Positions 16,679-58,334 of a stretch of DNA of 64,000 nt are shown piece after piece. A program made the translations under genes and the position numbers. This DNA comes from Eledone cirrhosa (taxonomy: Eukaryota): the NCBI GenBank assembly GCA_964016885.1, contig OZ024741.1, positions 34,224,001 to 34,288,000 on the forward strand. Reading direction: 5' to 3'. Numbering within the stretch: position 1 is the first letter of the stretch; each line of letters opens with the position of its first letter. Below the pieces are notes generated by a model. It did not search any database, was not told the origin of the DNA, and was given only the letters and a program-made list of their open reading frames with translations.

Positions 16679-16684
16679 GTTTAA

Positions 16685-16840
16685 ATATTCATTTTATTAA
16701 GGCTAAATAATGAGTCTTGTTACTCTGGAGTTCCGTCTGTTTATCACAGTGTCATCAGACATTCTTGTCTGATGACACTGAGAAGCAGGCAAAACTCCAG
16801 AGTAACAAGACTCTCTATTTAACCTTAATAAAATGAATAT
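16685..16840. mobile_element. Fold-back element carrying two divergent hammerhead-like motifs
   Basis: Imperfect palindrome with apex near 16763. The + arm reads TCTTGT-CTGATGA-stem II-AAAA-CTCCAGAG-TA-ACAAGA and is followed by AATAAA. The - arm has CTGATGA...GGAA-CTCCAGAG-TA-ACAAGA. Confidence 0.7.
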
Positions 16841-16903
16841 ATATATATATGGTGATGAATTTGTTTTGCAAGGTTTTTGATATGAAATCATGTGTCGAAA
16901 TAA

Positions 16904-17395
16904 ATATTGTTATATTTGGGGAGGGTCATATTATAATATTGCCAGAAATATACAATAAAAAACACTCACTGTTCGGTTTGGGTTGGTTTTCGCTTCCATA
17001 TATTTGATATCTCTATAGTTAATTTAGCTGACAATCAATGTTTATCGTTGATTGACCAACAGTTAAAATATGCTAGCGTGGAAGATAGACGTTAAACGAT
17101 GATGATGATATATATGTAGTCTCTCAAAGTTCTTTCATCACACATGTGACATCATCAGTGGTACTATTATGTCACAAGTGTGTGATGAAAGAACTTTGAG
17201 AGACTATATATATATTTATACCTATATTTTTAACTGTTGGTCAATCAATGATAAACATTGATTGCCTGCTAAATTAACTATAGGGATATAAAATATACAG
17301 AAGCGAAAACCAACCCCAACCAAACAGTGAGTGTGCTTTATTGAATATTTTTTGGCAATATTATAACAATATGACCCTCCCCAAATATAACAATA

Positions 17396-17396
<1 letters not shown>
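16904..17396. repeat. About 170-bp diverged inverted repeat pair (16904-17071 and 17224-17396) enclosing an RTE tail and a second palindrome
   Basis: The arms are reverse complements with scattered mismatches. The left arm is preceded by GTGATGA...CGAAATAAATATTGTT, a decayed hammerhead-like motif. Confidence 0.85.
17117..17206. repeat. About 36-bp-arm palindrome with a hammerhead-like core at the apex
   Basis: TAGTCTCTCAAAGTTCTTTCATCACAC.. pairs with ..GTGTGATGAAAGAACTTTGAGAGACTA. Minus strand reads CTGATGA-TGTCAC-ATGT-GTGAT-GAAA. Stems I and III are not recoverable. Confidence 0.75.
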
Positions 17397-17437
<41 letters not shown>

Positions 17438-17441
<4 letters not shown>

Positions 17442-17633
17442 AAAGGTATCCAGCCATAGAAACCAAGAATAAACAAAAGAAGTATCATGAGTAAGAGATG
17501 GCCAGTTAGCCTCATTACATGACAATATAATATATATTCTTCACATTGTCATGTAATGAGGCTAACTGGCCATCTCTTACTCATGATACTTCTTTTGTTT
17601 ATTCTTGGTTTCTATGGCTGGATACCTTTCCTA
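17438..17633. repeat. Perfect 89-bp inverted repeat with 18-nt spacer, adjacent to (TA)n
   Basis: 17438-17526 is the exact reverse complement of 17545-17633 (checked by hand). It includes an old RTE-type tail motif GGAAAGGTATCCAGCCATAGAAA. Confidence 0.95.
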
Positions 17634-17649
17634 ATGCCAACCACTTTAC

Positions 17650-18960
17650 AATTTGTTATAACTTACAGAGTTGGCTGGATACATAATACAATTTCCTTTT
17701 CTTCCTGAGAGAGTGAAACACTTTGTAGCCAGCAGAGGTAGTAGCTCCCTGAAACCCCCCCCCCTTTTCTCACTCTCGCTACTGTTCTTTTGGAACACAC
17801 TCTCCCACTACTTATTAAATCACATAGGTAGCAGGAGCTCTCAACCACTTCTAAGGAGTCTTCAGAGCATTTGGTAGTGTCTGTTCTGTGTGGGTACTTG
17901 CTGCTTATTGCTCATGTGCACTTGCCACATCATAGCTACATCTCTTGTGTTTATACACAGTATGGAATTTCTGCCAGCTCCCTTTTTACATATTGGCTAT
18001 TTTCCTCGAGACATCAAGGCTCTGTAATCTTTCCTACTTACTAGGACGTTAGTCTTAGCCAGGTTGACTTTCAGGCCATTTGATTTTAGGTTTTGCTTCC
18101 AAGTCTGGAATTTCTTCTCTAGTTTCACAGCTTATTCACCTGTGAGAACTAGGTCATTTGCATACAGGAGTTCCCATGAGCAGCCAGTCTTAAACACCTT
18201 TGGTATAGACTGGAAGACTATAATAAACAGATAAGGGATAAGGACAGAACCTTTGTGGCCACCCATCCACATGCTGAATTCCTCACTATACTTATTGTTA
18301 CTTCTCCCTTTACTGTCTGCCTTTCTGTACATGGCTTGTACAACCTTCACAAGCCACTCATCTACCCCTAGTTTCCTTAGAGCCCACAGGATTATGGAAC
18401 AAAGCAGTGTCAAAAGCTTTCTTGACATCAACAAATGTTAGGTGGTGGAGCTTACCCATAGCTAAATACTTCTACAGTTGTCTCACATAGACGATAGCAT
18501 CACTTATACCTCTACCCAGCACAAAACCAAACTATTTCTCGTCTAGATCAACTAAATCCTTAATCAGTTGCACTTTCTGTAATTTTCATAACTTGGTTCA
18601 TTAGTTTGGTGATATAGTTTCCCCTGTCTAGAGATCTCTCATGCCCTTGATGATGCTGCTACGCCAGTCATTAGGTATGACACCACCTTGTAATATCCGA
18701 TTTACAATATTTGTGGTTAACATGTGGCCCACCATCCCAGATGCTTTCAGCATCTCTGCAAGTATCCTTGATGGTCCAGCTGATTTTCTGCTTTTCACAG
18801 CCTTAATTACCTTACTTACTACAATTACCTGCATCTAATTTCGATGGCTGGTCCCTCTGTTGTGTCTCCTTTGAGCAGAATATCTTCCTCCCATGCATTC
18901 TTCTCATTCAACAGTCGCTCATAATAGCCCTTCCACACTTCTTCTCTCTAACAACATCCT
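17650..18960 (-). mobile_element. Old, heavily decayed RTE LINE E
   Basis: Fragmentary frames: WALRKLGVDEWLV, FKTGCSWELLYAND, AGPSRILAEMLKASG. Many frameshifts. Confidence 0.9.
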
Positions 18961-19048
18961 GAGAGAGAGAGAGAGAGAGCAGCCGGTAATATTAGTGAAA
19001 CTTCAAAGTAAACAGTACCATTAATAATATATAAATCTCTCTCTCTCT

Positions 19049-19084
<36 letters not shown>

Positions 19085-19407
19085 GGCTTAGTGGTTAGAG
19101 CATTGGGCTTGCAATCGAAAGGTTGTGAGTTCAATTCTCAGACCGGGTGATGTGTTGTTTCCTTGAGCAAGACACTTTATTTCACGTTGCTCCAGTTTAC
19201 TCAGCTGTAGAAATGAGATGATAGGGACTGGGGTCCCTATCATTCCACTGCAAAGTGGTCGTGGAGGTGCCACAAAAAAAAAGCACCCAGCACTCACTGT
19301 AAATGAGGTTGGTGTTAGGAAGGGCATCCAGCTGTAGAAATCAAGCCAGAATCAGTTCCTGTCCCACCCTTGCAAGCAGGGAAAAGCGGACGTAAAATGA
19401 TGACGAT
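19085..19407 (+). mobile_element. tRNA-derived SINE with RTE-derived 3' tail
   Basis: A box GGCTTAGTGG, B box GAGTTCAATTC, core CCTTGAGCAAGACACTTTATTTCAC, 11-bp hairpin near 19218-19243, tail shared with the LINE D and LINE C ends. Confidence 0.88.
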
Positions 19408-19514
19408 ATTATGATAATCATAACTATAATAAAGGAAGGAGTGCAGGACTGCGTCCCGAATATATTTTTTTTTATCCCGTTGGTAAAATAAGTTAGATTA
19501 CTTTGAATAAATAA

Positions 19515-19702
19515 TTGTGTCTACTTTTGGCACAAGGCCAGCAATTACCCAGTGTATTACTGGTACTTTATTTTATTGACCCCATAAGGATGAAAGGCAA
19601 AGTTAACCTCGGCGGGATTTGAACTCAGAATGGCAAAGGCCGTAACTTTGTGCGTCAAAGCATGGCGTCCGACCCTCTACCGATACTGTCAATCCACTGC
19701 CC
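19515..19702 (-). mobile_element. tRNA-derived SINE, family 2 (GCCTTTCATCCTT..GGGTC.ATAAAAT core)
   Basis: B box GAGTTCAAATCCC on the minus strand. The family recurs at about 25880, 26860, 31850, 31980, 35135, 36055-36545, 47700, 50160, 50330, 55505 and 57075. Confidence 0.88.
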
Positions 19703-19850
19703 TGTTTGAATAAATAAATAATGAATGAATATTACATAATTTATATACTAAATTTTGTAGCTGTTGATTAAACAAAGATTCTTATATATAATGATTGCTT
19801 ATTTTAAGATTCACTTTTAAAATTTTCAAATGTCTACACTTCCGGTTAGC

Positions 19851-20516
19851 CTTCATTTGGATAACGATAGCCTGCGCATCGGCTTTTCCTTGAGGCTTGG
19901 CCTCCGGATCTGCGAGCCACACTAATGTCGCTGTGGATCCACCGTGGACTCTTTCAGACTCCACGCGCTTTCCTGTTGCCACAGTGCCGGCCGCCTTCCA
20001 CGTCATGCTGCCCTCAACGAGGTCATTAAGCATGGCTTGAACGCTGCAGGCTTCCCCTCCCAGCTCAAGCCAGTGGGGCTGGACTGAGGGGACGGCAAAA
20101 GGCCAGACGGTATGACCATCTTCCCGTTCCGCGGTGGCGAACCCCTCATTTGGAATGCCACTTGCAGCGACACTTTCTCCAGCCGCAACCTGGTGCAGTC
20201 TGCGACTAACCCAGGTATTGCTGCACGTTCGGCTGAGGAGACCAAACTCTCCAAGTACCGGTCACTCTCCGACAGGTTCGCGGCCGTGCCCTTGGCAGTG
20301 GAGACTTCCGGTGTCCTTGGCTCTAGGGCTACCTCCCTATTCCCCACCATAGGCGCTGAGCTAGCCAGCCGCAGGTGTGAGCCTCACGAGTCGGAATGGC
20401 TCTTCCAGCGCATTTCACTTACTATCCTCCGGGGAAACGCCTTCTCCATCCTGTCCGCCGGGGCTGTGGGGAGGCCAGCACGTGGGACCCCATTTGCTCA
20501 CCATACGGATTCATAA
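19851..20516 (+). mobile_element. CRE-clade non-LTR retrotransposon 3' relic (zinc knuckle plus restriction-like endonuclease)
   Basis: One frame reads [58 protein letters not shown] with two in-frame stops. These motifs are typical of CRE-type RLE domains. Confidence 0.82.
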
Positions 20517-21256
20517 CACTTATTACATTGCTTATATAAACATCCATATATTGCATCGTTATATAAAGTTTCATTACATTTCACCGTAATTCAGTTTATA
20601 TATTATATCGTCTTTTTTAAATGTATCCCGGATTACTTTACTGATTACAGAAAAGAGTGTAACACAGTCTCTTTTCAATTTCTGTGCATATTGTCAATTA
20701 TGATATTATTTGACATATCATATCACATGCATATATATTTGCATATAATATAAATATGCACACTACACATGCTAGCAGAAAACTACCCAAAGGGTGGTTT
20801 TTCTGCTAGTAATAATAATAAAAGAACGATTTGTTATATCTTCATTACATTTATTGAGTAGTGACGCACGTTTTGCTATTGATCATCTCAAGGTTCGATC
20901 TGTATCGATCTAGCCCGACTCTGGAATCAAAAGCTCGTCGGACTTCTGCTGTGGTAATGACAGATTGAACCTGTAGGGCTTAGAAAGGTCTATAACAATT
21001 CACATTCATTTATGGTGGTCAGTTACTGTTTTGATTGGTGGTTTTGCTATAAGGAATGTTTTGGTATGTGTGATAGGTGGGGGGGGGGGTCATATGAAGA
21101 GGTGTTGGTGGGGAGCGATGGTTGGTGTGAGCTGCGGAGGTGTGGTGTTTTGGCTGTTTCATAGACATTGTGGCATATATGTGGTGAGGCGAGGATGGTG
21201 GGTGTGGGTGTGGAGGTGGTTATGTGTGATGGGAGATGAAAGAGTGTGGTGCACAT

Positions 21257-21298
<42 letters not shown>

Positions 21299-21303
<5 letters not shown>

Positions 21304-21565
21304 GTAGTTCCACAACAGTTCACCATACCGAGAACAAATGTTTCACCTTACGCGGATTCTCAGCTCGGTCTAAATGAAGTTGCACAGAAAAGGAAAAACA
21401 ACCGTTTCTCCTTTTCCACACAACTTCATTTAGACCGAGCTGAGAATCCCCATAAGGTGAAACATTTGTTCTCAGTATGGTGAACTGTTGTGGAACTACT
21501 TCTACCAAACTCGTCCTATGGACTGAGTGCTCTACTACTACGGATTTAATCCTCCAGTGTTCTAC

Positions 21566-21570
<5 letters not shown>
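21299..21570 (+). mobile_element. Fold-back Penelope-pLTR-like element in (TA)n with a divergent hammerhead-like pair
   Basis: Palindrome 21299-21504. Motifs at 21327-21369 (-) and 21434-21476 (+): ACCGAG-CTGAGAA-stem II-GAAA-CATTTG-TT-CTC(G/A)GT. The tail 21505-21570 is homologous to the reverse complement of 57543-57610. Confidence 0.7.
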
Positions 21571-21600
<30 letters not shown>

Positions 21601-21602
<2 letters not shown>

Positions 21603-21875
21603 ATCATCATCACGGTTTAACGTCTATTTTTCCACGCTGGCTTGGGTTAGATGAGTTGTCCTGTTGTGAGAAATGCCGGTCAGGTGACCTTACCATGCTC
21701 ATACAGAACTGTTTCTGGCTTGGTCTCTACGGCTGGTTGCCCTTCCTAACATCAAGCACATTTACATTGAGTACTGGGTACTTTTTGTCGTGCCACCTAC
21801 ATGACCGCTTCACAGTGAAGACTGGATACTTTTTGTCGTGAGACCTACATAACCATTTCACAGTGTGGACTGGGC
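21601..21875 (-). mobile_element. RTE-type 3' UTR/tail fragment
   Basis: CATCATCAC..TTTAACGTC..TTCCACGCT..GCCCTTCCTAAC motifs as in the LINE A/B tails. Confidence 0.8.
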
Positions 21876-21897
21876 ACAAATTTAGATACATAAATGC

Positions 21898-21929
<32 letters not shown>

Positions 21930-22372
21930 GTTTTTATTTTTCAAATATTTCCAGCTTTAACAAATTAAAACATGTTTAGTGATTGTGTTATTTCCAATAT
22001 GTAGTGCAGTGTCTAAATAGTAATCAGTTTTTGTTCGTTTTGAAAGTAAACAGTAATGAACATTAGGGTCAGTGTTGTATGTAATTTAAATAACTAATTA
22101 ATGAAAACAGAAGAACTGTGTAATCAATGGGAGGTGGAGTATTTATTAACATAGTATGTAGATGTGATGATGGTGATGATGATAGCTGTGGTGGTTTTAG
22201 TGGTTGTTACAGGGGGTGAGGGGGGGTTATGGTGGTGGTGTTTGTGATGATGATAGTGGTGGTGATTGTTGTGATGGTGGTGGTGGTGGTGGTGGCGATG
22301 ATTGTTGTCTTTATTGTTTGTGAATGCATGTGTGTGTGTATATATATTTATATATATGTGTTTATGTATATG

Positions 22373-22441
<69 letters not shown>

Positions 22442-22769
22442 ATATATGAATATGTGTGTGTGTTTCTGTGTATAGTTGTGTGTGTGTTTGCTACTGTATA
22501 TAGTTGTGTGTGTGATTCATCTGAAATGTATTAATGATACTTGAGATTTTGCTATTTTCTTCCCCTCCTTGAGAGATCTGTGTTGGAAAGTGGGACAGTT
22601 GTGTTATGTCTTGGAAGTGGGTCTGATGGCGCCACTCTCTCAGATTGAGGGCTTTCGTAGTCCTTCCTTCCTATAGACCAGGCACTCACTGCTTTGGTTG
22701 GCTTAACTTTTTTATAACATCAGCTTTTTGTTGTGGTATAGACTTCGATATTGTTGTAACTAAGACCAC

Positions 22770-25540
22770 ACAGACATTACACTACACCATACACTGCACT
22801 ACACTACACCACACAAACACCATACACTGCACTACACTACACCACACATACACCATACACAGCACTACACTACACCATACACTGCACAGACACTACACAA
22901 ACATGATACACTGCACTACACTACACCACACAAACACCATACACTGCACTACACTACACCACACAAACACCATACACTGCACTACACTACGCCACGCAAA
23001 CACCATACACAGCACTACACTACACCATACACTGCACTACACTACACCACACATACACTGCACTACACTACACCACACAAACACTGCACTACACCACACA
23101 TACACTACACAAACACTGCACTACACTACACATACACCACACAAACACTGCACTACACCACACATACACTACACAAACACTGCACTACACATACACCACA
23201 CAAACACTGCACTACACTACACCACACATACACTACACAAACACCATACACAGCACTACACTACACCACACATACACTACACACTACACTACACTACACT
23301 ACACTACACTACACTACACTACACTACACTACACTACACTACACTACACTACACTACACTACACTACACTACACCACACAAACACCATACACTGCACTAC
23401 ACTACACCACACAAACACCATATACTGCACTACACTACGCCACGCAAACACCATACACAGCACTACACTACACCATACACTGCACTACACTACACCACAC
23501 ATACACTGCACTACACTACACCACACACACACTGCACTACACCACACATACACTACACAAACACTGCACTACACTACACATACACCACACAAACACTGCA
23601 CTACACCACACATACACTACACAAACACTGCACTACACATACACCACACAAACACTGCACTACACTACACCACACATACACTACACAAACACCATACACA
23701 GCACTACACTACACCACACATACACTACACACTACACTACACTACACTACACTACACTACACTACACTACACTACACTACACTACACTACACTACACTAC
23801 ACTACACTACACTACACTACACTACACTACACTACACTACACTACACTACACTACACTACACTACACTACACTACACTACACCACACATACACTACACTA
23901 CACCATACTCAAACACCATACTACAAACATACTCCTTGACACCACATACATACTCTACTACACAGCTCCACATACACTACACAACAGCACACATACACTA
24001 TACAACACCACATACACCACACTACACAACATCACATACATCACACATACACTACACAACACTACCGAACATCACATACACTACACAACACCATATACAC
24101 TACACAACACTATATACACTACACAACATCACATACACTACACAACACTACCGAACATCACATACACTACACAACACCATATACACTACACAACACCATA
24201 TACACTACATAACATCACATACACCACACATACGCCACACATACACTACACAACATCATATACACTACACAACACCACATACACTAAACAACATCACATA
24301 CACTACACAACACCATATAAACTACACAACATATACACTACACATACACCATATACACTACACAACATCACATACACTACACAACGCCATATATACTACA
24401 CAACACCATATACACTACACAACACCATATACACTAAACATACACCATTTACACTACACAACACCATACACTACACAACACCTTACACTACACAACACCA
24501 CATACACCACACACTACACAACACCACATACACCACACAAGACCATATACACTACACAACATCACATACACTACACAATACCATATACACCACACAACAT
24601 CACATACACTACACAACATCACATACACTACACAACACCATATACACCATACAACACCATATACACCACACAACACCATATACACTACACAACATCACAT
24701 ACACTACACAACATCACATACACTACACAACATCACATACACTACACAACACCATATACACTACACAACACCATATACACTACAGAACACCATATACACT
24801 ACACAACATCACATACACTACACAACACCATATACACTACACAACATCACATACACCACGCATGCACTACACAACATCATATACATTACACAACACCATA
24901 TACACTACACAACACCATATACACTACACAACACCACATACACAATATACACTACACAACATCACATACACCACACAACACCATATACACTACACAACAC
25001 ATACACCACACAACACCATATACACTACACAACACCATATACACTACACAACACCATATACACTACACAACACCATATACACTACACAACACCATATACA
25101 CTACACAACACCACATACACCACACACACCATATACACCACACAACACCACATACACCACACAACACCATATTCACTACACAACACCATATACACTACCA
25201 AACACCACATACACCACACAACACCATATACACTACACAACACCACATAACACCATATACACTACACAACACCATATACACTACACAACACCACATACAC
25301 CACACACACCACACAACACCACATACACCACACAACACCACATACACCACACAACACCATACACCACACAACACCACATACACCACACAACACCACATAC
25401 ACCACACAATACCACATACACCACACAACACCATATACACTACACAATACCATATACACTACACAATACCATATACACTACACAACACCACATACCACAC
25501 AACACCACATACACCACACAACACCATACACTACACATCT
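22770..25540. repeat. CA-rich cryptic satellite with perfect (ACACT)n cores
   Basis: Pure pentamer runs at about 23275-23370 and 23725-23880, embedded in CACCATATACACTACACAA-type units. Confidence 0.95.
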
Positions 25541-26271
25541 CCCTGTTCCATCACATTGTGTTAGCTAATTCTCAATAGTAACACATTATTATGTCCAAAT
25601 TATGCCTGACTCGTGTGGGGCTGACTGAATAGAATCTGTTCAATTTTAGCAAAGAGGTAGCAACAGGGAACAGCAAATCAAAGAAGGAGCTAGTTAACCG
25701 ATACATGCATGGTCCCGTAACTGACGAGGGAGACGTGGGGGCACTGTATTGACATATGATGTTACTAGGGTATTTTTAAGCCTGGTGGAGCCCAATCCTT
25801 TCCAGGTCTCAATACAGCAGATTTCTTCCAGAGAAGGATGGAGAGTGAGAGAATGGAAGTGAGAAAGAGATATAGAGGAAGAATCGACCCCAGTACTAGA
25901 CTGGTACTTTTTTTATCGACTTCGAATGGATAAAAGGCAAAGTTGACCTCAGTGGGATTTGAACTCGGGGAGCAGAGTGCTGAAATGAATACCATAAAGC
26001 ATTCTATCTGACTCTGCCAATTTGCTAATAACAAGATCCAAACAGAAAAGTCATCCATTTTGGTTGTCACCCATAAGGATGATTGTTTGACAAACAGGTT
26101 CCATTCCAGTTTTGTAGTTGTTTAGACCAAGGATGCTCCAGCTGTGACACTGCCATCCCATTTACTTTCTCAGGCATAATATACCTAGGACTACATTATC
26201 TGTTTAACTAAGAGGAGGCCACATATAAAATATATGTTAGGAGGACATATGTAGATATAACTGTGTCTGCT

Positions 26272-26440
26272 GACATAGCTGTGTAGTTAAAAAATTTGCT
26301 TTGCAACCACATGGTTACTGGTTCAATCTCACTGTACAGCACCTTGGACAAGAATTTTCTACAATAGTCTTCAGCTGACCAATGCCTTGTGAGTGGAATT
26401 TGTTAGGTGAAAATTGAGCTGGTGTCCATCATTGTGTGTG
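26272..26440 (+). mobile_element. Decayed tRNA-derived SINE (family 3)
   Basis: A-box/B-box relics (TAGCTGTGTAG, GGTTCAATCTC) followed by CACCTTGGACAAG core and CCTTGTGAGTGGA. A similar relic lies near 54110-54220. Confidence 0.6.
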
Positions 26441-26854
26441 TGTATCAATCACTTGTGTGTATCTGTGAAAGATGTAAAGATTAATGAGAAAACCAATAAA
26501 CAAGTGCTTTCAAACAAAAATACCCAGTGTGGTATTTGTTCTGCCTTAGTTACACAGATCCTCCCTTGTCTCAATGAGAAATGCTGTAAATAAATGATTG
26601 TACCATTGGAGACATGTAATTAATAGGACTCTTGTTCTCCTAATAGGGATGATCAGGGCACCCCACAAGCCCATGGTCACCCTGATTATCAAGGGCAAGT
26701 GCCCTCTTTCGATTTTCCTACTTCGACCTATAGACTTATACTGAGAGTAGAACCAGTCAATCTCGTCATTTTCATTTGTCACCCATCTTTGATAAAATTC
26801 ACTATAGGAGAATACCTCCTGCTCCTCTCACATAAAAATAATGATAATAATAAT

Positions 26855-27058
26855 GGTTTTTGATTTAGGCACAAGGCCAGCAATTTGGGGGGGGGGGGGG
26901 AAGTTGATCAAATCGACCCCAGTGCATAACTGGTGCTTTATTTATTCACCCTGTAAGGATGAAAGGCAAAGCTAACCTCGGCGGGATTTGAACTCGGATC
27001 GTAAAGGGCCGTAACTCTATGCTGCAAAGCATGTCCGATACTGCCAATCCACCGCCCT
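26855..27058 (-). mobile_element. SINE family 2 copy, ending about 85 bp upstream of the exon splice acceptor
   Basis: Same core as 19515-19702, with (ATA)n on both sides. Confidence 0.85.
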
Positions 27059-27143
27059 TAATAATAATAATAATATTTCATCACTATATTTATCTGAGTA
27101 GAGTCTCTAATATATGTTTTTTATTTTTTTTGTTATTTTTCAG

Positions 27144-27604
27144 AAAATCAAGATGTTAATTTAGATGCCATTCTTGGAGAACTCTGTGAACTAGAATGTC
27201 AGTTAAATACAACACAGAGTGAAATATCAAAGTCTCTGGCTCCAACCACTCCACAGTCTACAACAGGTATCAACTCTACTGATCCACCGGTGCACAATGA
27301 AACAGGAGACCCAATTCAAGCTGAACTCGATGCACTGGCTGCAGAAATCACCAAAGGACTTGGATTTAATACAGCCGATGATTTCTTTGGAATGCACTCC
27401 GAGCTTACGTCACTGTTTCCGGACGGTGGTTTGGATATCACGGAAACAGACTCTGCTTACTCCGACAATGCTTCATTGCCGTCATCGGAGTCATTCACAT
27501 CAATGGCCACTGTGTCTTCATCTGCCGATACGTCGAGCACTGGAGACGCCTGTAGCACGAGCAGCACTAGTACACTAACGCCAGCTTCTGCCACCCAGAC
27601 TGAA
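27144..27604 (+). CDS. Internal coding exon (461 bp, phase 1 to phase 0) of an MRL-family adaptor gene (RAPH1/lamellipodin, APBB1IP/RIAM, pico-like)
   Basis: Polypyrimidine tract plus TTTTCAG acceptor, and GAA|GTAAGT donor. Open frame NQDVNLDAILGELCELECQL...ELDALAAEI...TDSAYSDNASLPSSES..., which resembles from memory the LDAILGEL and DSAFSD..S..SSES motifs of invertebrate MRL proteins upstream of the RA-PH domains. Confidence 0.85.
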
Positions 27605-27641
27605 GTAAGTTCTTTCAATTCCATACTTACATGCACAAACA

Positions 27642-27684
<43 letters not shown>

Positions 27685-28085
27685 GTGTATGTATGTACAT
27701 ATTGTTCTTAATTATTTCTGTTATTTGTCTTTTGTTTTAACATTTTCACTGCAACTCCCCACCTCTCCACAGTATTTACAAAATATACCCTTAATTAAGG
27801 CAGTCCTCTGTGAAAAATGTTCCCTCCCAAGTGTATTATTTTTGCCTTATACGCCCGGGATAGCCCGAAAATCTATTTACATAGTCCACTATTGGGTGTG
27901 TATGTGTTATCCAGGTTTACCAGATCAATTTCATAAAAAGTAGCACAGCATTTTCAAAAGTAGCAGATTGTGTTAGAAAGTAACCCCAACTGAACATTTT
28001 GATAGATTAAAATATATAACCTAGGCCAGCATGGAAAAACAGACGTTAAATCATGAATGAAAAATTATATATATATATATATATA

Positions 28086-28231
28086 CAATAAGGATTTAGA
28101 ACAATGTGTATATTAGTAGAGTGTAAACATCAATATTTAATATAGAAACGGCTTCTACAGAACTAGAACTGTTTCATTCGTATAAAATCATGATTTCATA
28201 TAAATGAAACACTTCTAGTCCTGTAGAAGCC
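28086..28231. mobile_element. Fold-back pLTR-like element in (TA)n; palindrome axis falls inside the hammerhead core
   Basis: Palindrome 28150-28231 with zero spacer at AAATCA|TGATTT. The + arm reads TGA-TTTCATATAAAT-GAAA-CACTTCTAG-TC-CTGTAG. Confidence 0.68.
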
Positions 28232-29255
28232 ATATATATATATATATATATATTGTGTGGATCACCAGCATTAGGGAAGCTGTCATGTCCTTAATGATCC
28301 TCCCAACCCTTTGTTTGGCAAAGTTTCTATGATTGGATGCATAAGTAACAACCAATCAGTGTATAATGATACAATTAGATTTAAGCACTCAACGTCATGT
28401 ATTTCTAAATATGATTTGTCAGTCAGTGATGGAGTACAAGTAGAATAAGGAAAATGCAAAGTTCAGTATAGATGTTTAACAATCCTTTAACAAAGCTGTG
28501 ATACATATTTCAATGGCAATTGTAGCTGCGTGATTGTTCGATGACACAACCAATCAGATATCATTAGACAGCGTCTTATGTAATAAGGTTACTTTTCGTA
28601 AGCAATCCAATCTAAAGACAAGGGAACAGACAGAAAAGACGTTTTCATAAAGTCTGTTCTAATATATATATAAAGCATTGCCTGTAGATTAGTTCCAATT
28701 TACTTAGTTGATAACCTAATCTTTAGGGCGCTGATTTTTTAATGAATTGCCTCCCTTGACACTTTATGTATTAAGGAGAGATTACTCTATTGGCGACTTA
28801 TGTCACCAACAGTTCCAAGAAGGTTAATATGATATTCAATAGCATTCTTTAAAAAATAGAATATTAAAATAATGAGGGGCCCAAATTAAAAAACAAACAT
28901 AGTGTGCTGTCGTGAATAGTACATGTAGCTCAGTCTATCAGTCTAACAACCCCGTCTGTACTCCCTGACAGTACCCTGGGGAAAAAGGTGATGTAGTTGA
29001 GTTATTAAAAAAATATTGCAGTGAAAATGTTAACAGAATAAATAACTAACTAAAATTATAAGTATATCCATGTGTTTCATAATTAATCTGTTTCGTTGTA
29101 CTAATGAGCAATGCTGGATTTTAATTGCTAACCTTATATAACATACATTTCTTTTTCTCATGTTCTGTATGATTGAAAAAAGGAGGAATGAGTACTTTGA
29201 GAGAGTTACCTGCTTAGTATGTCCCTGTAGCATTGACTCCATTGTTGCTTGGGAC

Positions 29256-32509: not shown

Positions 32510-32556
<47 letters not shown>

Positions 32557-32618
32557 GTCTGTGTATGTATGTGTGGGTATATGTGTGTGTATATATATAT
32601 ACACACACACATTAGTGC

Positions 32619-34454: not shown

Positions 34455-34491
<37 letters not shown>

Positions 34492-34747
34492 TCATCATAC
34501 GTCTGCTTTTCCCTGCTTATGGAAGATACATATACATGTATACATAAGTATAAAAACACACCTATATAAGGTTTCCATCCTTTACTAGTTTTGCTCGATG
34601 AATGAATTAAATAAATAATCAATTAGTCAGAGCTTTATGTAATTATAAGTAGGAAGAGCAAACAAGATAAAAAGTTACCTAATTTTACTTCAATGTCAGG
34701 TCATTGAAGTAAAATTAGGTTACTATAGTTAGTTTATTCATTATCAG

Positions 34748-48558: not shown

Positions 48559-48857
48559 CAGGGTTGGATTTAGACCTTGGGAGGCCCGAGGCACTTCAGG
48601 TTTGAGGGGGCTCCTCTTACACAAAAAATTAGAATACACAGCAAATGCCCCAATTTTACATATCACAGTTAGCTTGGCACAAGTAATTGGAATTGAAACA
48701 TTATACATACAGGTATTAAATTAAACATTTCTAACCATCCTAAAACTAAAAAGCCCAGCAGTGGGCACAGATAGATTGCTATGGCCATCGCTGGTGGGGC
48801 TCCCCACTGCAGGGGGCCCAGGGCAATTCCCCCCCCCCCCCATTAAATCCGGCCCTG
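48559..48857. mobile_element. hAT-type MITE, 299 bp
   Basis: TIRs CAGGGTTGGATTTA / TAAATCCGGCCCTG (12/14) and 8-bp TSD GATACATT / AATACATT (7/8). Confidence 0.82.
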
Positions 48858-49356
48858 AATACATTCCTCCTTGCAACTGGGAAACACTGTAGTTCTCTCT
48901 TTGATTAAGCAATAAAAAGAAATATGTAGTGTTGTGCACATCTACATTGGCACATACACACATACACACACACACACACACACTGATGCACACAATGGTC
49001 CTTCTAATGTGGTCACTGACTTGACCTGCTAGAAATAGCAGCCAAGATGTATGTTAAATTACACCTTGCCATTGTAGTGTGTGGCAGATTGTCTGACTAA
49101 AAGATAGAATGATCACAGTTGGACTGATCTATGGTTGGATCGGGACTGACTCGTGGCTAAACAACCCAAACAAGGAACACCTACACACATACACATATCT
49201 ACACATACACACTCACAGACACACACACACACTCTTGTTAGTTCTGTATAGATCTATACACACTAAGACATTTTCATACATACATACACTTACATAGTTT
49301 TGTAGAAATATGTATGTACACACACATGCACTTACATACAATCCTGTACAAACATA

Positions 49357-49391
<35 letters not shown>

Positions 49392-49396
49392 AAAAA

Positions 49397-49590
49397 TCAT
49401 CATCTTCATCATCATCGTTTAACGTCCATCTTCCACGCTAGCATGGGTTAGACGGGTTTGTCCCACTTGAGACAAGATTGGTCTGGAGACTGTGTCTCGC
49501 TCGTACAGAACTGTTTCTGGCAGGTTTTCTACGGCTGGATGCCCTTCCTAACACCAACCACATTTACCGTGTGGACTGGGAGCCTTTTGT
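49397..49590 (-). mobile_element. RTE-type 3' tail fragment in (TA)n
   Basis: CATCATCGTTTAACGTCCATCTTCCACGCTAGCATGGG..GCTGGATGCCCTTCCTAACACCAACC. Confidence 0.85.
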
Positions 49591-49591
49591 A

Positions 49592-49628
<37 letters not shown>

Positions 49629-50325
49629 CATACACACATTTTTTTTATTGGTTCAGCATAATCATTAGTTGCTAGGCAACCAATTGATGCAGTTTTACCA
49701 CAGATGTCTGGCAAAGACATTATCACCATCATCATCATTATCATTATCACTGACACCACCATCATCATAATTATTACTGGTGCCTCCTCTACTACCATCA
49801 CCACCATCATCACTGCCACCATCAACATTATTATTACTGGCACCACCATCACAATAATTTTTACTGGCGCCACCTCCACTATTATTACTGGTGCCAGCCC
49901 CACCCCACTATCACCATCACCACCATCTTCTCTATCATCACTGCAATGAATAAATGAATATTAAAGTCTTAAAATAGCAACAGCATTTGTCCCTTTTTCA
50001 GTGGTGGCGGTGGTGGTGGTGTTATTGTTGGTGGAAGAGGGGGGTGCTGGTTATCTATCCATGAGGTAAGACAGTGAAGTCAGAGTTTGTTGTTTAACCC
50101 CAGGTCAGCCCTATTTAGGCAGACCTGTGACCAATGAACAACATTCCAGTCATGCTTAGTTGCACAGAGTTACGGCCCTTTGCGTTCTCTGTTAAAAAAT
50201 CCTGCTATGGTTAACTTTGCCTTTCATCCTTACAGGGTTGATAAAATAAAGTACCAGTAATGCACCAGGTCGATTTAATCGACTTTCCCCTTCCCCTAAA
50301 ATTGCATTATTTCGTCTTGGCAGAT

Positions 50326-50772
50326 ATATAATTGTTTCTACATTTGGCACAAGGCCAGCAATTACACAGTACATTACTGGTACTTTATTTTATCCTGCAG
50401 GTCGGTCGTGTAATAATTGTTTCTACATTTGGCACAAGGCCAGCAATTACTCAGTACATTACTGGTACTTTATTTTATCCTGCAGGTCGGTCGTGTAATA
50501 ATTGTTTCTACATTTGGCACAAGGCCAGCAATTACTCAGTGCATTACTGGTACTTTATTTTATCCTGCAGGTCGGTCATGTAATAATTGTTTCTACATTT
50601 GGCACAAGGCCAGCAATTCACCAGTGCATTACTGGTACTTTATTTTATCGACCACCGTAAGGATAAAAGGCAAAGTTAACCTCGGCAGGATTTGAACTCA
50701 GAATGGCAAGGGCCGTAACTCTATGCGTCAAAGCATGGCGTCCGACCCTCTACCGATACTGCCAATCCACCA
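50326..50772 (-). mobile_element. SINE family 2 copy whose 3' part is amplified as an 85-bp tandem repeat
   Basis: Units start at about 50326, 50411, 50496 and 50581. The last one continues into the full SINE head. Confidence 0.9.
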
Positions 50773-51429
50773 CGTCTTGGGAGATATATAATGTATCTAA
50801 TGTCATATCACTCCATATGTTCCTCCTTTTGTAGGAGGAGATTTAGACTGCTGTTTCTAGCACAGAGAAACTCCAATATTTGGTAACCAGGAGAAGGGAG
50901 GTTATCTTTGTTTCAGTGACAGGATAGGGAGGCAGTGTTAGGGCGGGGTGGGGGTCTGTATAACAGGGCATGGGGGGGGGTGTATTACTAGTGATAGGGC
51001 AGGGTTGGGGCTGTCTGATAGGGTAGTGGGCTATGGTGATGATAGGGGCATCAGTAGGGAGGGGGTTACTGTTGTATTATCACATATACTCTCAAACATG
51101 TATATATACATGGTGGCTGCCAACTCGTTTTCGAGTACGGCCACTACTTTATATCCATGTAGGAGAACCCCTACCGAAGCGCTGAACGAGTGTGACTTTT
51201 TAGTCCAGCCAGCGACTTGAAAACTCTGGTACAAACACTACACTTGTGACAATTATTGACACATAGTGCTGGGGCCATGGTACCATGTGAGGACAAGTGC
51301 AGAGAGATCTCCAGATATAAAGCAATGCCTGTGCCGTGAAGCTTTTATAGTGAGCAAAGGCACTGCACAAAGCCAGTCCCACTCTCTTAACCAAGATGAT
51401 ATTTACCAAAAAGAAGAACAAGTCAACAT

Positions 51430-51720
51430 CATTGGATACCATCAGGGTTGCAGGTGTTATATCAGAGTTTTCCTTCTCCTAGAATTCTGCCTTGACAAAG
51501 GCTAAGGGGTCATCTCTCCCGGTGATTCTGGATGGCCATTGACTCTTAAGAGCTCCTTTGCCCTTTGACAGGTTTTGTTTTTAGTCCTGCAGGATGTCCA
51601 AAGTCACCCTCCTCACCAAGAAACCTTGGTGGGGTTGCCAGTTTAGTCGCCAACGACCCGACCATGAGACAGGTTGTACTGGGATACATGTTACCAGTAG
51701 CACCAACTGGTGACCTGACA
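51430..51720 (-). mobile_element. Probable RTE-type LINE 5' UTR relic
   Basis: Minus strand carries CTAGGAGAAGGAAAACTCTGA, a motif I recall from RTE 5' UTRs, preceded by a structured GC-rich segment. Confidence 0.45.
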
Positions 51721-51799
51721 TACAGACATGCAAACATACACATACTGGCATTTTTTTTTCCTATTTCATATATATTGTAATTATATTTTCACTGTCACT

Positions 51800-53000
51800 A
51801 TGGGAGGTGGTGTTGGTGGTAGTGGTTGTTGTGGTGGTGGTGTTGGTCGTTGCTGTGGTGGTGGTGGAGGTGGTGGTGTTGGTGGTTGCTGTGGTGGTGG
51901 TGGTGTTGCTGGTAGTGGTGGTGGTGTTGGTGGTGGTGTTGCTGGTAGTGGTGGTAGTGGTTGTTGTGGTGGTGGTGTTGGTGGTTGCTGTGGTGGTGGT
52001 GGTGATGTTGCTGGTAGTGGTTGTTGTGTTGGTGGTTGCTGTGGTGGTGTTGGTGGTGGTGGTGGTGTTGCTGGTAGTGGTGGTAGTGGTTGTTGTGGTG
52101 GTGGTGTTGGTGGTTGCTGTGGTGGTGGTGTGGTGGCAGTAGTGCCGACAGTGGTGTTGTGGTGGTGGTGTGGTGGCAGTAGTGCCGACAGTGGTGTTGT
52201 GGTGGTCATGCTTGTGACAGCAGTTGTGGTAGTGGTGCTGCAATGGTGGTGGTGGAGGAGATAGATTTCTATCAAGAACACATCACTTTAGTATTGAAGT
52301 CAAGTACTTTGGCTTCCTGGATCAATAACACCACCCCAACACCACCACACCACCAACACTACCACACCACCACCACTACTGCTGCTGCTTTCTTCAACCC
52401 TGCTTCTGCCACTAATAACATCAGCATTGCTGCTGCTGACAATTCCATCACTACCACTGCTGTTTGTTGCTTGTTAATACTACCACCACCAACACCACTA
52501 CCACTGCCACTATCACCACCACTGCCACTATCACCACCACTGCCACTATCACCACTACTACCACTGCCACAACCACCACCACTATCACCACCTCCACTAC
52601 CACCACCACCACCACCACTATCACCACCTCCACTACCACCACCACCACTACCACCACCACCACTACCACCAACACCACTACCACCAACACCACCACCATT
52701 ACCACTACCACCACCACTACCACTACCACCACAGCCATTACCACTGCCACCATCGCTACCACAGCCACCACCACCACTGCCACCACCACTACCACCACCA
52801 CCACCACAATATTTTCTTGTCTTCCATATTTCTCTAATATCTATCACTATACATGTTCTCTCTCTAATGTGCCACCATATATGCTCTCCCCCCTCTCTCT
52901 CTAATGTGCCACCATACATGCTCTCTCTCATGTGCAGCCCACATCTACTTCTATTACCACCACCTCCACTACCACCACTATTACTACTACTACTACTACT
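51800..53000. repeat. (GGT)n-rich tract followed by an (ACC)n-rich tract
   Basis: Degenerate triplet repeats at 51800-52255 and 52330-53000 in opposite orientation. Confidence 0.9.
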
Positions 53001-53339
53001 GTCCCACAGTATACAACACCCTGTCCTGTATCAGCTGTTGTAGTGTTGTTATCCTCTTGCTGTGGTTGTACGATAATTGGATGGCAGTAGATAATGAGAC
53101 ATAGTGGATTACCCACACGTATTACTGGTAATTTAACAACTGTTCTATTTCTTACATCAGCACAATTATACATATATTTGTCATGTAGCATTAGTGGTGT
53201 TTATGTGTGTCTATCAAATTGATCCGCAGGATATCACTGGTACCCAGAGCTAAATTAACTCCTTTAAAAAAATGATAGTCTCCCTCTCCTCATAAATTCA
53301 GAAAAAAGAATATATTTTGGAAAACCAAAAAGATCTTTG

Positions 53340-53680
53340 AAGTAATGTTACTTGATAGAGTGTGTAAATCAGAGATGAGAGAGTTACTCCAGTTAGAGCA
53401 GCTGCTTCTCCAAATAGAGAGATCACAACTCAGATACTATGGACATGTGGTTAGAATGTCTCAGGAAAGAATCACTGGACAGATTTTACAAGCAAAATCC
53501 CAACTGGCAGGAGACCCAGGGGTAGACCCCGAGCAAGATCGTTGGATAACATCTATGAGCCTGGCTGATCTTGCTTGGGGATCCAGCTGGAGCGGTTGGA
53601 GATGTTTGCTTCTGACAGGACCCTCTTGAAGGCATGTTTGAGGACTCTGCCCCCCACAACCCTAAGAGGGAGAAGAAGAA
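53340..53680 (+). mobile_element. Old RTE-type LINE 3' fragment
   Basis: LLLQIERSQLRYYGHVVRMSQER and an (AGA)n-like tail. Inverted relative to 34748-35115. Confidence 0.78.
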
Positions 53681-54254
53681 AAACTACTACTACTACTACT
53701 ACTACATCATTTAATATGAATAAACTGGTGCCTCCTCTTCTCTTGATGTCCCCTAAGCATGTGTTTGTTTTATTTAATGGTTAGTCCAACCACACTGGTT
53801 CCGAACTGTCACTTCATTGTGCTACTACCTGACTATTGCAGTATACTAACATCAGACCCTCTAAGAAATGTTACCAGTGAAAAAGACTGGTGTCCTTTCC
53901 AGGTGGGGAAGATTTCCATTATTTATTTAATGCTACTTTACCAGGAACTATGGACAGGTCAGACCAACGAGAAGTGTCCATTCCATTTGCTGTCCCACTC
54001 CCCGACCTGTGAAAGGAATGTGGCTGATGTTTGGATATGTCTGTAAGGAAGATCCAGAAGATTACAGTTTATAGAGGAAGTATTGAATAAAGTGAGAACA
54101 GCTTTGACAGTGAGGTTAAGAAGGTCCTTTTGCAATTACCTGGTTCTTGGTCCAAACCCACTATACAGTACCTTGTGAGGAGAATTTGGGGGATATAAAA
54201 ACTGTGGAAGCCCATTGTATATATATAATCATCCTTCTTTTTCTAATGTTTGCG

Positions 54255-54570
54255 TGAGTTGAGTCGGTCCTTTCATAGGTTGGGTGGGTCCTTTCCTGAA
54301 TTGGGTAGGTCTTTTCCCGAGTTGGATGGGTCCTTTCCTGAATTGGATGGGTCCTTTCTTGAGTTGGGTGGGTCCTTTCCTGAATTGGGTGGGTCCTTTC
54401 CCGAATTGGATGGGTCCTTTCCTGAATTGGATGAATCCTTTCTTGAGTTGAGTGGGTCCTTTCCTGAATTGGGTGGGTCCTTTCCCGAGTTGGATGGGTC
54501 CTTTCCTGAATTGGATGGGTCCTTTCTTGAGTTAGATGGATCTTTTCCTGAGTTGGATCAGTCCTTTCCA
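54255..54570. repeat. 21-bp minisatellite, about 15 copies
   Basis: Unit GA(G/A)TTGG(A/G)TGGGTCCTTTCCT. Confidence 0.93.
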
Positions 54571-55503
54571 GCAGCTTCCCTCAACATGTGTTCCTTTATC
54601 ATCTCCTGTAAAATTAAAACATCCTGAGATCATCTTTTGTCACTTCTGCCCAAATCTTCCTTAGACTTCTTCTATTACAGCTTCCTTCCACTTGGATCTC
54701 TCAGCACTTCACCCAATAATGATAATGATCATCATCATCATCCATATGCATCACATGTCCATACCAGCTCAGTCTACTCTCTTGCACACTGCATCTGATT
54801 CCTCTTATAGTCGTTTTTTTCTCTCAACTCGTCCATACTGCCATGCAACGTCAGTGATCATAAGTAAACAGAAATTCAAGAAACTTGTTGAAACTTAACA
54901 TAAGGAAGTTGTGAAACAACAACTATACTCTAAACGACGCTTAAAACATTTTAAACATCAAAATATTAAAACTTCGTAAATATATTTTATACTCGTGAGA
55001 ATTTCAAAGCTATGCTATCTGAACATAATGTGTTGATTAGCAACCTTGGCTTATAAACGGGGTTTGGACTTTTGCCCATTTCTCAGACAAAATAAAGGGA
55101 TCTATATTCAACTATACATGGTAGGTCCCATAGGTAACAGAAGCTATCAACTGCTTTTATTGGACCTTCTTGGGATTAGAAAAAAATTATTTCACCTGGG
55201 CTCATTCAACTACATATATGCACTTAGAAAGGGAGGTGGTGGGTAGAAAAAGCTGTTAGTGGTGGAAGGGTTGGATTTTAGCCAGTTAAATCAACTCCAG
55301 AAAATGACTAATACATATTTTATAAACTGCCCCCTTCTCTAGAAAGATTGCAGGAAAAGTCAAACGAGACTATAAAGGGACATAAATTGAATATTATTAT
55401 TTTTTCCTGTCCATCAAATCTATAATGTATTTTGTAACAAACCATCTACTTTAGGGGAAAACATTGTAAGATATATTAACCCATTGATTATATATCATAT
55501 ATT

Positions 55504-55700
55504 AGGCGGTGGATTGGCAGTATCAGTTCAAGGTCAGACGCCATCCTTTGCTGCATAGAGTTACACTCCTTTACGTTCTGAGTTCAAATCCCACCGATGT
55601 TAACTTTGCTTTTCATCCTTACAGGGTCGATAAAATAAAACACCAGTAATGCACTGGCGTAATTGCTGGCCTTGTGCCAAAAGTAAAAACTATTATTATT
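55504..55700 (+). mobile_element. Near full-length SINE family 2 copy
   Basis: GGCGGTGGATTGGCAGTATC head, GAGTTCAAATCCC B box, core, and (TTA)n tail. Confidence 0.88.
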
Positions 55701-55766
55701 ATAGAGAGCAGCAATGCCTATGGCCATTGCAGGACATCCCAGGTTGGTGAGATTGATGTGGTTTAA

Positions 55767-55995
55767 CTCTTTAGTTACCAACCCGACCCAAACTGGCTCT
55801 GGTTCTAGGAAATAATACCCATTTTAAAGGTTTCCAATTTGAATTATAATTTTCCAACATAATTTCATATAAGAACCTTACATTAAGTTACTATCTTAGT
55901 AATGAAATATTTAATAATTTTTGTAAATCTCTTAAAATATTTCATTAATTAATTAAAATAGAGTGCATTTCATTAAAAATGTGGTCTTGAAAAGG
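55767..55995. mobile_element. Old AT-rich MITE-like element (paralog of 29256-29832)
   Basis: TTAA|CTCTTT ... AAAAGG|TTAG termini and internal similarity to the 29 kb copy. Confidence 0.5.
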
Positions 55996-56249
55996 TTAGA
56001 CATTGTAGGTAATGGTCTGAATACTTTTAGTGGAATGAGTTCCTAGTAAAAACACCCAAGGGGAGAAGGGCAGAATCCATGACTTGTTGCTGAGATTGGT
56101 GCAAAGGGGGAAACAATCTTCAAACAGAAGGCCCGGTCTTTATAGCTTACAGCAGAGTGATACTGCTAACAGAATCAAAAACTAGATGGTGGTTTTAAAC
56201 CGAGTGACAGATATCACAAAGTAGACCTTGATCAAAGGCAATCCAGCTG

Positions 56250-56920
56250 GGACCATCCTGTATATCATGAACAGAATTGACATGTGCAGCTGGGTTGGAA
56301 GTGGTATTAAACCTGGCAGATGTAGGGTCAGTCAGTTGGAATTAGCAGATAACATTGTCCTACTTAATTCAGCAGAAGGTGGTCTCCGACATGCACTGGA
56401 TAGATTTGATGCCAATTCTGCACGGCAGGAATGGAAATCAGTTCAAGTATCTTGGGACTATTTTCACAAGTGAAGGAAGGCAGGAGGCTAAATTAAGTAC
56501 AAAAATGGTGCATAATACGCCAGCTCCAGCACTGTCATCAGAAAAAGGGAGGCAGGTGTAAAAACCGAACTCACTGTTTTCAGTTCTGTGTTTGTGCCTA
56601 CCCTAATTATGGTCATAAATCTTGGATAATGACCAAAAGAATATGATTGTGAATACAAACAGTTGAAATGGGATTTCTTCCAAAGGGTATTTGGAGTAAC
56701 ATTATTTAATAATGTATTTAGCTCAGAGATCAGGGTTCTGGTCCTACAGGCATGTGGTTAGAATGTCTAAGGAAAGAATTTCTAGACAGATTTTATGGGA
56801 AAAACCAAACAGCAAGAGACCCCAGGCAAGATGTTTGGATAACATCCATGAGCTCAGTTGATCTCATGTGGAGAGGACAGTGCCCCCACAACCCTCTCAG
56901 GAATAAGTGGATGAAGAAGA
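56250..56920 (+). mobile_element. Decayed, internally deleted RTE-type LINE
   Basis: LADNIVLL (YADD region), FKYLGTIFTSEGR, and a C-terminal region matching the 53340 family. Confidence 0.7.
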
Positions 56921-57542
56921 GAGTAAAATTTCCATGAATTCTTTAAGGAATTTGAGGAAGATTTGGCTATTATTTTTAGCAGGTTGTGCAACTTTCCATG
57001 TAGAGGCTCTCACTGGCTCCAAAATGTGTGAGTATACACACACATAATATAATATATATAGATATTTATTGTTGTGAGTTCAAATCCTGCCGAGGTTAGC
57101 TTTGCCTTTCGTCCTTACAGGGCCAATAAGATAAAGTACTGGTAATGCACTGAAGTTGATTTAATCGACTTTCTCCTCCCTCCAAATTGCTGGCCTTGTG
57201 CCTAAAGCAGAAACCATTATTATATATATGTATATATATGGAAAAGAATGAAACGAAATTTCATTTCCTACTCTTAGTACATACATACATTTATGTATAT
57301 ACACACATATGTATGATATATCAACCTATGATGAAGAAAATGGCTACTTGTTATCTCCCCTTACACCAATGTTCACATTGCATTGCATATTTTACAAGAG
57401 TGAGAAAAATATATACCAGTAAATTTAATGAATTAAAACCTCGAAGGTGCTGCCCCTGTATGATCACAATCCAATGACCAAACCCATTATACACACACAC
57501 ACACACGCACACGCACACACAGAGAGAGAGAGAGAGAGAGAG

Positions 57543-57764
57543 TGGTAAAAAGCCAGGAGGTTATATCCTTAGTAAGTAAAGCACTCACTCCAGAGGACGA
57601 GCCTGGTATAGAGGTAGTTCCATAACAAATTAGCAAACCATACTCAAGGATGCGTGTTTCACCGAGTTAATTTTCAACCCATGTATGGCTGCCATACACG
57701 GGTTGAAGATCTGTTCGGTGAAACCCTCATCTTTGAGTATGGTTTGCTAATTTGTTGTGGAACT
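57543..57764 (-). mobile_element. Fold-back pLTR-like element between (GA)n and (CT)n with a divergent hammerhead-like pair
   Basis: Palindrome 57616-57764 with a 3-nt apex. The + motif 57692-57742 reads CCATACACGGG-TTGAAGA-TCTGTTCGGT-GAAA-CCCTCA-TC-TTTGAGTATGG. The - motif 57638-57688 has GAAA-CACGCA-TC. Confidence 0.7.
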
Positions 57765-58147
57765 CTCTCCTCTCGCCCCCCCCCTCTCTCTCTCTCTACA
57801 CACACACACCCATCTCTCTTCTCTCCCTCTCTCTCCTCTCTTCCTCTCTCTGTCCTCTCTCCCCTCTCCCTCTCTCTTTCTCTCTCTCTATATATACACA
57901 GACACTCTCTCTCTCTCCTCTCTCTCTTTATATATATACACACACACACTCTCTCTCTCCTTTCCCTGTCTTTTTATCTCTCTCTCGCTCACTCATTCAT
58001 TCTTTTTCCTCTACTCCTTCTGTCTCTCATTTTCCTCCACTCTCATTCATTCTCATCACTTATCCAAATGTGTTTGACTCTCATCTTCTCTCTCTCTCTC
58101 ATCCATTAATTTCCTTCCTAACCCCCCCCTTCTCTATGCATATATAT

Positions 58148-58334
58148 GGTGATCCCTAATTAAGTTGGGAGTAATCACATTAAATAAGGTACTCAATACA
58201 TATGTAAAGTGACAGCAGAGGTTTATATAGAAAAGGGATTCTACTAGAATTGTTTCATTTGTATGAAATGATCATTCCTGATGATTTCATACAAATGAAA
58301 CAGTTCTAGTCCTGTAGAAGCCAGCCATTTCTAT
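58148..58334. mobile_element. Fold-back pLTR-like element with a canonical hammerhead core on the + strand
   Basis: CTGATGA(58278)-TTTCATACAAAT-GAAA(58297)-CAGTTCTA-GTC(58309). Inverted arm 58243-58274. Same family as 16538 and 28086. Confidence 0.7.

Follow-up and report, generated by a model that had tools for sequence, protein, structure and literature searches.

The six palindromes found between positions 16,685 and 58,334 of a 64,000-nucleotide stretch of the Eledone cirrhosa genome (assembly GCA_964016885.1, contig OZ024741.1, positions 34,224,001 to 34,288,000; hereafter the window) are head-to-head, 5′-truncated 3′ ends, or pseudo-long terminal repeats (pLTRs), of Penelope-like retroelements (PLEs), and they belong to five families, A to E. 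They are objects of a known kind, the PLE insertion unit drawn in PMC8557442 and described in PMC3846280 (these and the other sources given by identifier are cited from excerpts), and the elements in the window themselves are ordinary decayed transposon ends. The initial annotation of the window had taken them for non-autonomous, pLTR-only elements in which the fold of a hammerhead ribozyme sets the inversion point. Such a ribozyme-set fold-back is not supported by our data, and promoter-anchored stubs are likely. We consider it fairly probable that the palindromes are paired 3′-end copies of GIY-YIG PLEs, namely promoterless strong-stop stubs that end 30 or 31 nt after a TATA-like box, and that the template end, rather than the hammerhead, determines where the arms join.

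To sample the families, we searched the 3.0 Gb assembly with queries drawn from the part located 3′ of the hammerhead, so the 5′ extent of the copies was unselected. One 28-mer of family A gave 429 exact matches (control 0), of which 50 loci were sampled. For B, C and D we took the 30 best of 40 scored matches each, and as these are the best matches to a tailed query, they favour tailed arms. For E, 30 of 698 matches were used. Two autonomous families absent from the window, F and G, served as controls. The F sample comprised 66 loci of 6570 matches, after 4 of 70 had been dropped as the same locus reached via the other arm, and the G sample 84 arms of 4030 matches, after 16 of 100 had been dropped as duplicates. 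Low-complexity partner hits in A, E and F and one spurious chain in locus L230 were removed before counting. Censoring affected long G copies, at about -650, and five long copies at the edges of loci or references. Positions within arms are counted from the first base of the hammerhead core.

A head-to-head partner arm was present at 134 of the 236 sampled loci of A–F, and the share of loci without a partner ranged from 30 to 73 % by family. Every family has two discrete 3′ ends, 45–65 nt apart, both of which are also found among solo copies. Most pairs (103/134) combine a tailed and a short arm; five are short/short, three are tail/tail and 23 include a cut arm. All six palindromes of the window likewise carry an extra tail of 20–70 nt on one arm only, a feature absent from the initial annotation. 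The 3′ end abuts a dinucleotide run at 192 of the 236 loci, compared with 177 of 1100 random flank stretches, and dinucleotide tracts adjoin all six palindromes in the window, so the proposed association with microsatellite targets holds. The tails of A and B, which are otherwise unrelated, have a common 11-nt motif, and those of C and D a similar 7-nt motif; these are candidate recognition sites of the reverse transcriptase (RT) or the endonuclease.

A search of the genome for GIY-YIG domains returned 150 scored loci, including long open reading frames (ORFs) with RT and GIY-YIG. The ORFs of F and G have Pfam matches to both domains, and locus L199 shows the layout pLTR-ORF-pLTR. An ORF with RT plus C-terminal GIY-YIG lies directly 5′ of the pLTR in F and G and, as remnants, in C, D and E, where GIY-YIG was detected directly 5′ of the hammerhead by tblastn (C, 1.9e-31 to 1e-20; D, 5e-37; E, 4e-6 to 6e-5). 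Family A has shared upstream sequence of up to ~450 nt in 9 of 30 copies with complete stem I, and family B extends upstream for at least 1.4 kb; given such longer copies, stem I is not a strict 5′ boundary for either family. Given the ORF remnants in C, D and E and the upstream extension of A and B, no window family is pLTR-only. The Penelope-like origin proposed by the initial annotation is thus supported by the head-to-head truncated copies, the one-sided tail and the ORF linkage of C, D and E; a linked ORF was not reached for A and B. Judged by motifs only, C and D resemble the Hydra clade, as their remnants contain the CxCX5C linker and the CxxC and CxH motifs (RWK and DKT were seen only in the related ORF at L431), and E, F and G share the CX2-5CxxC linker of Neptune/Nematis-type elements. 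Long near-intact ORFs of Neptune and Hydra type were recorded at L199 (938 aa), L201 (1096 aa), L202 (636 aa) and L431 (768 aa). Both F and G are young families, each with exact 3′-end matches in the thousands.

Of the 102 5′ ends in the F sample, 44 cluster at -47..-42, 21 extend beyond this wall and only two are at stem I. Per base, copies stop at a rate of 0.169 at the wall, compared with 0.002 within the hammerhead and 0.0006 upstream. The wall, at -44, follows a TATA box at -75 by 31 nt, with CCAAT boxes at -174 and -137. For G, we forecast a wall near -41 from the TATA box at -72 before the search, and it was found at -43..-41; 30 of 84 ends lie at -43..-38 and two at stem I, with stop rates of 0.113, 0.003 and 0.0014, respectively. 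The ends of both families therefore peak 42–44 nt upstream of the core, at 40–85 times the per-base rate inside the hammerhead. In A (wall at -9, TATA at -39) 15 of the 17 arms that reach the wall stop there, and in B (wall at -7, TATA at -37, CCAAT at -89 and -70) 13 of 14, so that both walls lie 30 nt after a TATA-like box. Across A, B, F and G the distance from wall to core varies from 7 to 44 nt, while that from wall to TATA is constant at 30–31 nt. The sharp wall is seen in paired arms of these four families and also in solo copies of F (9/30), G (7/31) and B (3/9). The wall is likely the transcription start of the element RNA within the pLTR. A start site inside the pLTR has been reported for Penelope of D. 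virilis (PMC2377424) and likewise for Chlamys-3, and a pLTR of Adineta carries a TATA/initiator pair (PMC3846280). At L199, splice-donor-like bases overlap stem III of the hammerhead in both pLTRs, and a pyrimidine tract with AG lies in the tail there and in the tail of family A, which suggests a putative 5′ untranslated region intron of 80–95 nt, as in Penelope of D. virilis.

From these observations a sequence of events can be proposed. The RT would start internally at two adjacent sites and would cleave and extend both target strands, as the in vitro work in PMC11167929 leads us to infer. If initiation takes place on the 5′ pLTR copy, synthesis would reach the RNA 5′ end and run off there after 80–260 nt. 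Two short cDNAs, mostly from one source, would each use a different target strand as primer (twin priming, with a single RNA as template), and their 3′ ends would be joined by short homology or filler with 0–15 nt trimmed. Copies that pass the wall would derive from the 3′ pLTR of a long RNA. Stubs that end at the wall, without the TATA/CCAAT region, are probably dead ends. A stronger version, about which we are somewhat more doubtful than confident, is that misfiring on the element's own 5′ leader is routine in PLEs: a dimeric RT would use both start sites of one RNA, run off the capped end and integrate two strong-stop cDNAs head to head. In LINE-1 twin priming, two target-primed cDNAs are also joined by microhomology, but the resulting inversions do not overlap, whereas the arms here overlap fully. 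Retroviral minus-strand strong-stop DNA is likewise a short cDNA that runs to the RNA 5′ end, but it is then transferred, whereas the stubs described here are integrated.

Several points weigh against this reading. The samples cover a small fraction of each family, as the figures for A and F given above show. No solo A copy ended at the wall (0/15), no sharp wall was found in C, D or E (best 3-nt window with 9/52, 5/42 and 2/38 ends, respectively) and no TATA box was found in their consensus sequences. The TATA variant of A (TATTTATA) and the wall windows of A, B and F were picked after looking at the data. The start site is deduced from motif spacing; a cap-derived extra G was counted in 23/55 versus 27/91 cases (p=0.15), and the promoter of D. 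virilis Penelope is TATA-less (PMC2377424). Upstream of A and B, no ORF turned up in 11 extended stretches aimed at these families or in 30 + 12 long B stretches, a search in which contiguity is broken by long GT/AT repeats. The asymmetric arms could stem from later deletion at palindrome centres. Of the two arms in the longest F pairs, the one with the tail tends to be longer (11 vs 4), as copy-back expects.

Copy-back is the best of the rival explanations, and we regard it as unlikely. Here the RNA 5′ end would again set the position, but the second arm would arise by self-folding of the cDNA or by self-priming of antisense RNA, the latter proposed in PMC3846280, and resolution by the endonuclease, as suggested in PMC8557442, would leave the one-sided tail. 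The arms of a pair do nearly always share subfamily alleles. The mismatch between paired arms was 0.10 in F, 0.12 in E and 0.21 in C, against 0.54, 0.53 and 0.56 after permutation, which rules out two independent random templates per palindrome; A and B, with two diagnostic sites each, are weakly informative. Moreover, the tailed arm is longer by at least 5 nt in 40 pairs, compared with 30 in the opposite direction. However, in 21 of the 103 tail/short pairs it is the tail-less arm that extends further in the 5′ direction, by 10 nt or more. As both arms of these pairs hold unique sequence, neither can have been copied from the other, unless later deletions intervened. Junctional overlap between the arms was seen in 62 of 134 pairs, the remaining ones abutting or carrying filler, and at many junctions both arms are complete to the final base or separated by a loop of 0–1 nt. 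The occurrence of both 3′ ends among solo copies also speaks against copy-back, as do two A pairs with different linked haplotypes on their arms, one among 23 sampled pairs and the other P1 in the window.

The second rival, which we find improbable, has the RT stall once the uncleaved hammerhead has been copied and then snap back; the axis would be fixed by the RNA fold, perhaps in C and D alone. The axis lies at the hammerhead in 30/35 pairs of A, 21/21 of B, 16/22 of C and 9/12 of D, i.e. 76 of 90 axes within -15..+45, but in only 2/8 of E and 5/36 of F. The positional rule of the initial annotation thus reflects a genuine pattern, present in four of the five families of the window, but not a general one. 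In A and B the axes fall at the hammerhead because the TATA-defined wall lies 6–9 nt before the core. In F and G the RT passes through the hammerhead and comes to a halt 42–44 nt beyond it, which speaks against the claim that the RNA fold sets the inversion point, and solo copies, which have no fold-back, end at this wall too. The situation is less clear in C and D, which have a broad rise in ends from about -45 or -30 to +4, with stop rates of 0.051 and 0.042 per base at -12..+4 versus 0.005–0.006 at +20..+45, and in which the fold may contribute. The ends of E are scattered and show no rise at the hammerhead (0.005 at -12..+4). The C ends form clusters at -12 and -42/-44 that carry initiator-like motifs, another point against stalling. 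The hammerhead stretches folded no better than shuffled ones in four of five cases (z -0.96 to +0.12). The hammerhead is probably a bystander that happens to lie near the join point, 7–44 nt downstream of the wall, and not its cause.

The type I hammerheads themselves are real at the family level, as the initial annotation had proposed: the core boxes, the NUH and three stems are present in all seven family sequences. They are clear only from these sequences and not from single window copies. Only two of 12 window arms match the strict core pattern, which occurs four times in the window versus 3.28 expected, and an Rfam search of the window gave no hammerhead match at E≤10, only sub-threshold microRNA (miRNA) matches. 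In E, where N7 and the length of loop II vary, stem covariation was modest, with eight double-change cells versus 3.3 in shuffled data (reached in 1/500 shuffles), and in D it showed no excess over shuffles (375/500). D and G have a U3-A8 core, which is a reported variant (PMC4209133), and A–D and F have Y-Y at 10.1/11.1, where U-U is reported to be tolerated (PMC3088659). Pooled over the seven families, eight 5′ ends fall at the scissile bond, compared with 15.9 expected. Hammerhead cleavage recorded as 5′ ends is therefore unsupported, and the view of the initial annotation that uncleaved RNA is the template gains support; uncleaved RNA is the main template in vitro (PMC11167929). In F alone, four ends lie at the bond versus 0.57 expected, two of them being the arms of one locus.

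The idea of self-propagating non-autonomous units, either miniature inverted-repeat transposable elements (MITEs) or retrozyme-like circles, fits the short, abundant, palindromic and hammerhead-bearing nature of the copies but is hardly credible, because inner junctions differ from copy to copy, outer ends are asymmetric, many loci have a solo arm, long ORF-linked copies exist, ends are not in excess at the cleavage site, the A–F loci show neither fixed terminal inverted repeats nor a fixed interior (target-site duplications being unreadable in (TA)n), and the copies in the A, B, C and D loci examined are inverted or solo, with no tandem head-to-tail monomer arrays bounded by cleavage.

Among known systems, insertion units of endonuclease-positive PLEs (PMC8557442 fig. 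2; PMC3846280) are the closest. They share the 5′ truncation, the inverted truncated head-to-head copy, the optional tail at one end, the (TA)n targets, the pLTR hammerhead and parents with RT and C-terminal GIY-YIG. Here, most units are tiny, with both arms below 300 nt, the 5′ ends pile up at one base 30–31 nt after a TATA-like box, and the tails measure 45–65 nt instead of 30–40. Poseidon of Anolis (PAc), studied in vitro, has in common two adjacent RT start sites that define the tail, cutting and extension of both strands, and uncleaved RNA as main template; an RT dimer is predicted, and the excerpt describes neither head-to-head products nor a genomic pile-up at the RNA start (PMC11167929). 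Non-LTR retrozymes and minimal hammerheads (PMC4209133; 10.64898/2026.07.22.740005) share the PLE-derived type I hammerhead with a short palindromic stem III, but the units described here are inverted, vary in make-up and begin 5′ of stem I instead of at the cleavage site. Pairs of minimal hammerheads 100–700 bp apart on opposite strands have been noted in Schistosoma (PMC4209133), a source that ascribes most single motifs to truncated PLEs.

The palindromes of the window were called from a BLAST self-comparison (E 1e-17 to 1e-133) and arm-to-arm alignments, and all six are present at about the positions given by the initial annotation (Table 1). Their arms are 80–92 % alike, so they are old insertions. 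Some details had to be corrected. P2 exists but is merely the centre of a fold-back that spans ~16852–17396, a unit of ~545 nt whose left arm is interrupted at 17070–17118 by a 3′ fragment of another common repeat. The presence of several unrelated families was right, but they number five and not about four, and C and D are akin at their 3′ ends. The description of both arms of every palindrome as starting with stem I and CUGANGA is wrong for P4, for the right arm of P2 and for the left arm of P6, which begin inside the core, and for family D, whose core is of the UUGAAAA type.

Table 1. Arms of the six window palindromes (P1, 16685–16840; P2, 17117–17206; P3, 21299–21504; P4, 28150–28231; P5, 57616–57764; P6, 58243–58310) and an adjacent solo copy; extents are relative to the hammerhead core.
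Feature	Family	Positions	Strand	Extent	Remarks
Solo copy	B	16538..16665	-	from +4	5′-truncated; full tail; abuts partial tail of P1 left arm
P1 left arm	A	16663..16761	-	-3..+96	core at 16758, GAAA box mutated; partial tail 16663–16684
P1 right arm	A	16762..16840	+	-7..+74	core at 16769, GAAA box mutated; no tail; loop II haplotype unlike left arm
P2 left arm	E	16852..17172	-	-14..+275	tail 16852–16899; core 17158–17133 intact
P2 right arm	E	17166..17396	+	+3..+230	no tail; ends in (TA)n; few-base junction overlap with left arm
P3 left arm	C	21299..21405	-	-42..+69	no tail; core at 21363, G8A change as in right arm
P3 right arm	C	21404..21570	+	-36..+135	core at 21440; tail 21505–21570, then (TA)n
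P4 left arm	B	28110..28191	-	from +3	partial tail 28110–28132
P4 right arm	B	28190..28241	+	+3..about +55	no tail; runs into (TA)n
P5 left arm	D	57546..57691	-	-14..+131	UUGAAAA-type core at 57677; tail 57546–57615
P5 right arm	D	57692..57764	+	-11..+62	core at 57703; no tail
P6 left arm	B	58167..58274	-	+1..+110	degenerate; tail present
P6 right arm	B	58275..58334	+	-3..+53	core 58278–58300 intact; one stem II mismatch; no tail

At 16538–16840 the B stub meets the truncated tail of the A arm through a 3-nt overlap; nested insertion and a template jump between families are candidate readings. Mixed clusters of PLE ends within single (TA)n tracts recur at L140, L212, L233 and L236. DNA contigs matched against 16690–17380 gave repeat pieces only, none of them spanning the stretch. 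The self-comparison also revealed palindromes without a hammerhead. One, at 17438–17633, begins at the (TA)n that terminates P2, has arms identical over ~91 nt and duplicates a diverged copy of a common short repeat, with no match among the other fetched loci. It looks like an inverted duplication of flanking DNA at a break, the alternative being an assembly artefact. The other two, at 34673–34724 and 13239–13277, are small and have no obvious hammerhead; the latter matches L422 and L435. Elsewhere in the window, we noticed a transposase ORF of 351 aa (6759–7814), several fragments of long interspersed nuclear elements (9080–16226) and a probable host exon (27098–27943), which from their translations we take to be mariner/Tc1-like, RTE-like and a host exon, respectively.

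A pile-up of PLE 5′ ends at a predicted start site was not found in the literature searched, which covered excerpts from the main text of openly accessible papers. The origin of the inverted, one-side-tailed insertions of PLEs is named as open in PMC8557442. If the misfire on the 5′ leader is real, it would account for the long-unexplained inverted pLTR with its one-sided tail, each family would leave thousands of promoterless stubs, and the transcription start of any PLE family would be readable from genome sequence alone. The rule that ties the junction to the RNA start is testable in the existing in vitro PLE system (PMC11167929). There is also a risk, in animal genomes, that short palindromic repeats with a hammerhead are wrongly classified as MITEs, miRNA hairpins or retrozymes.

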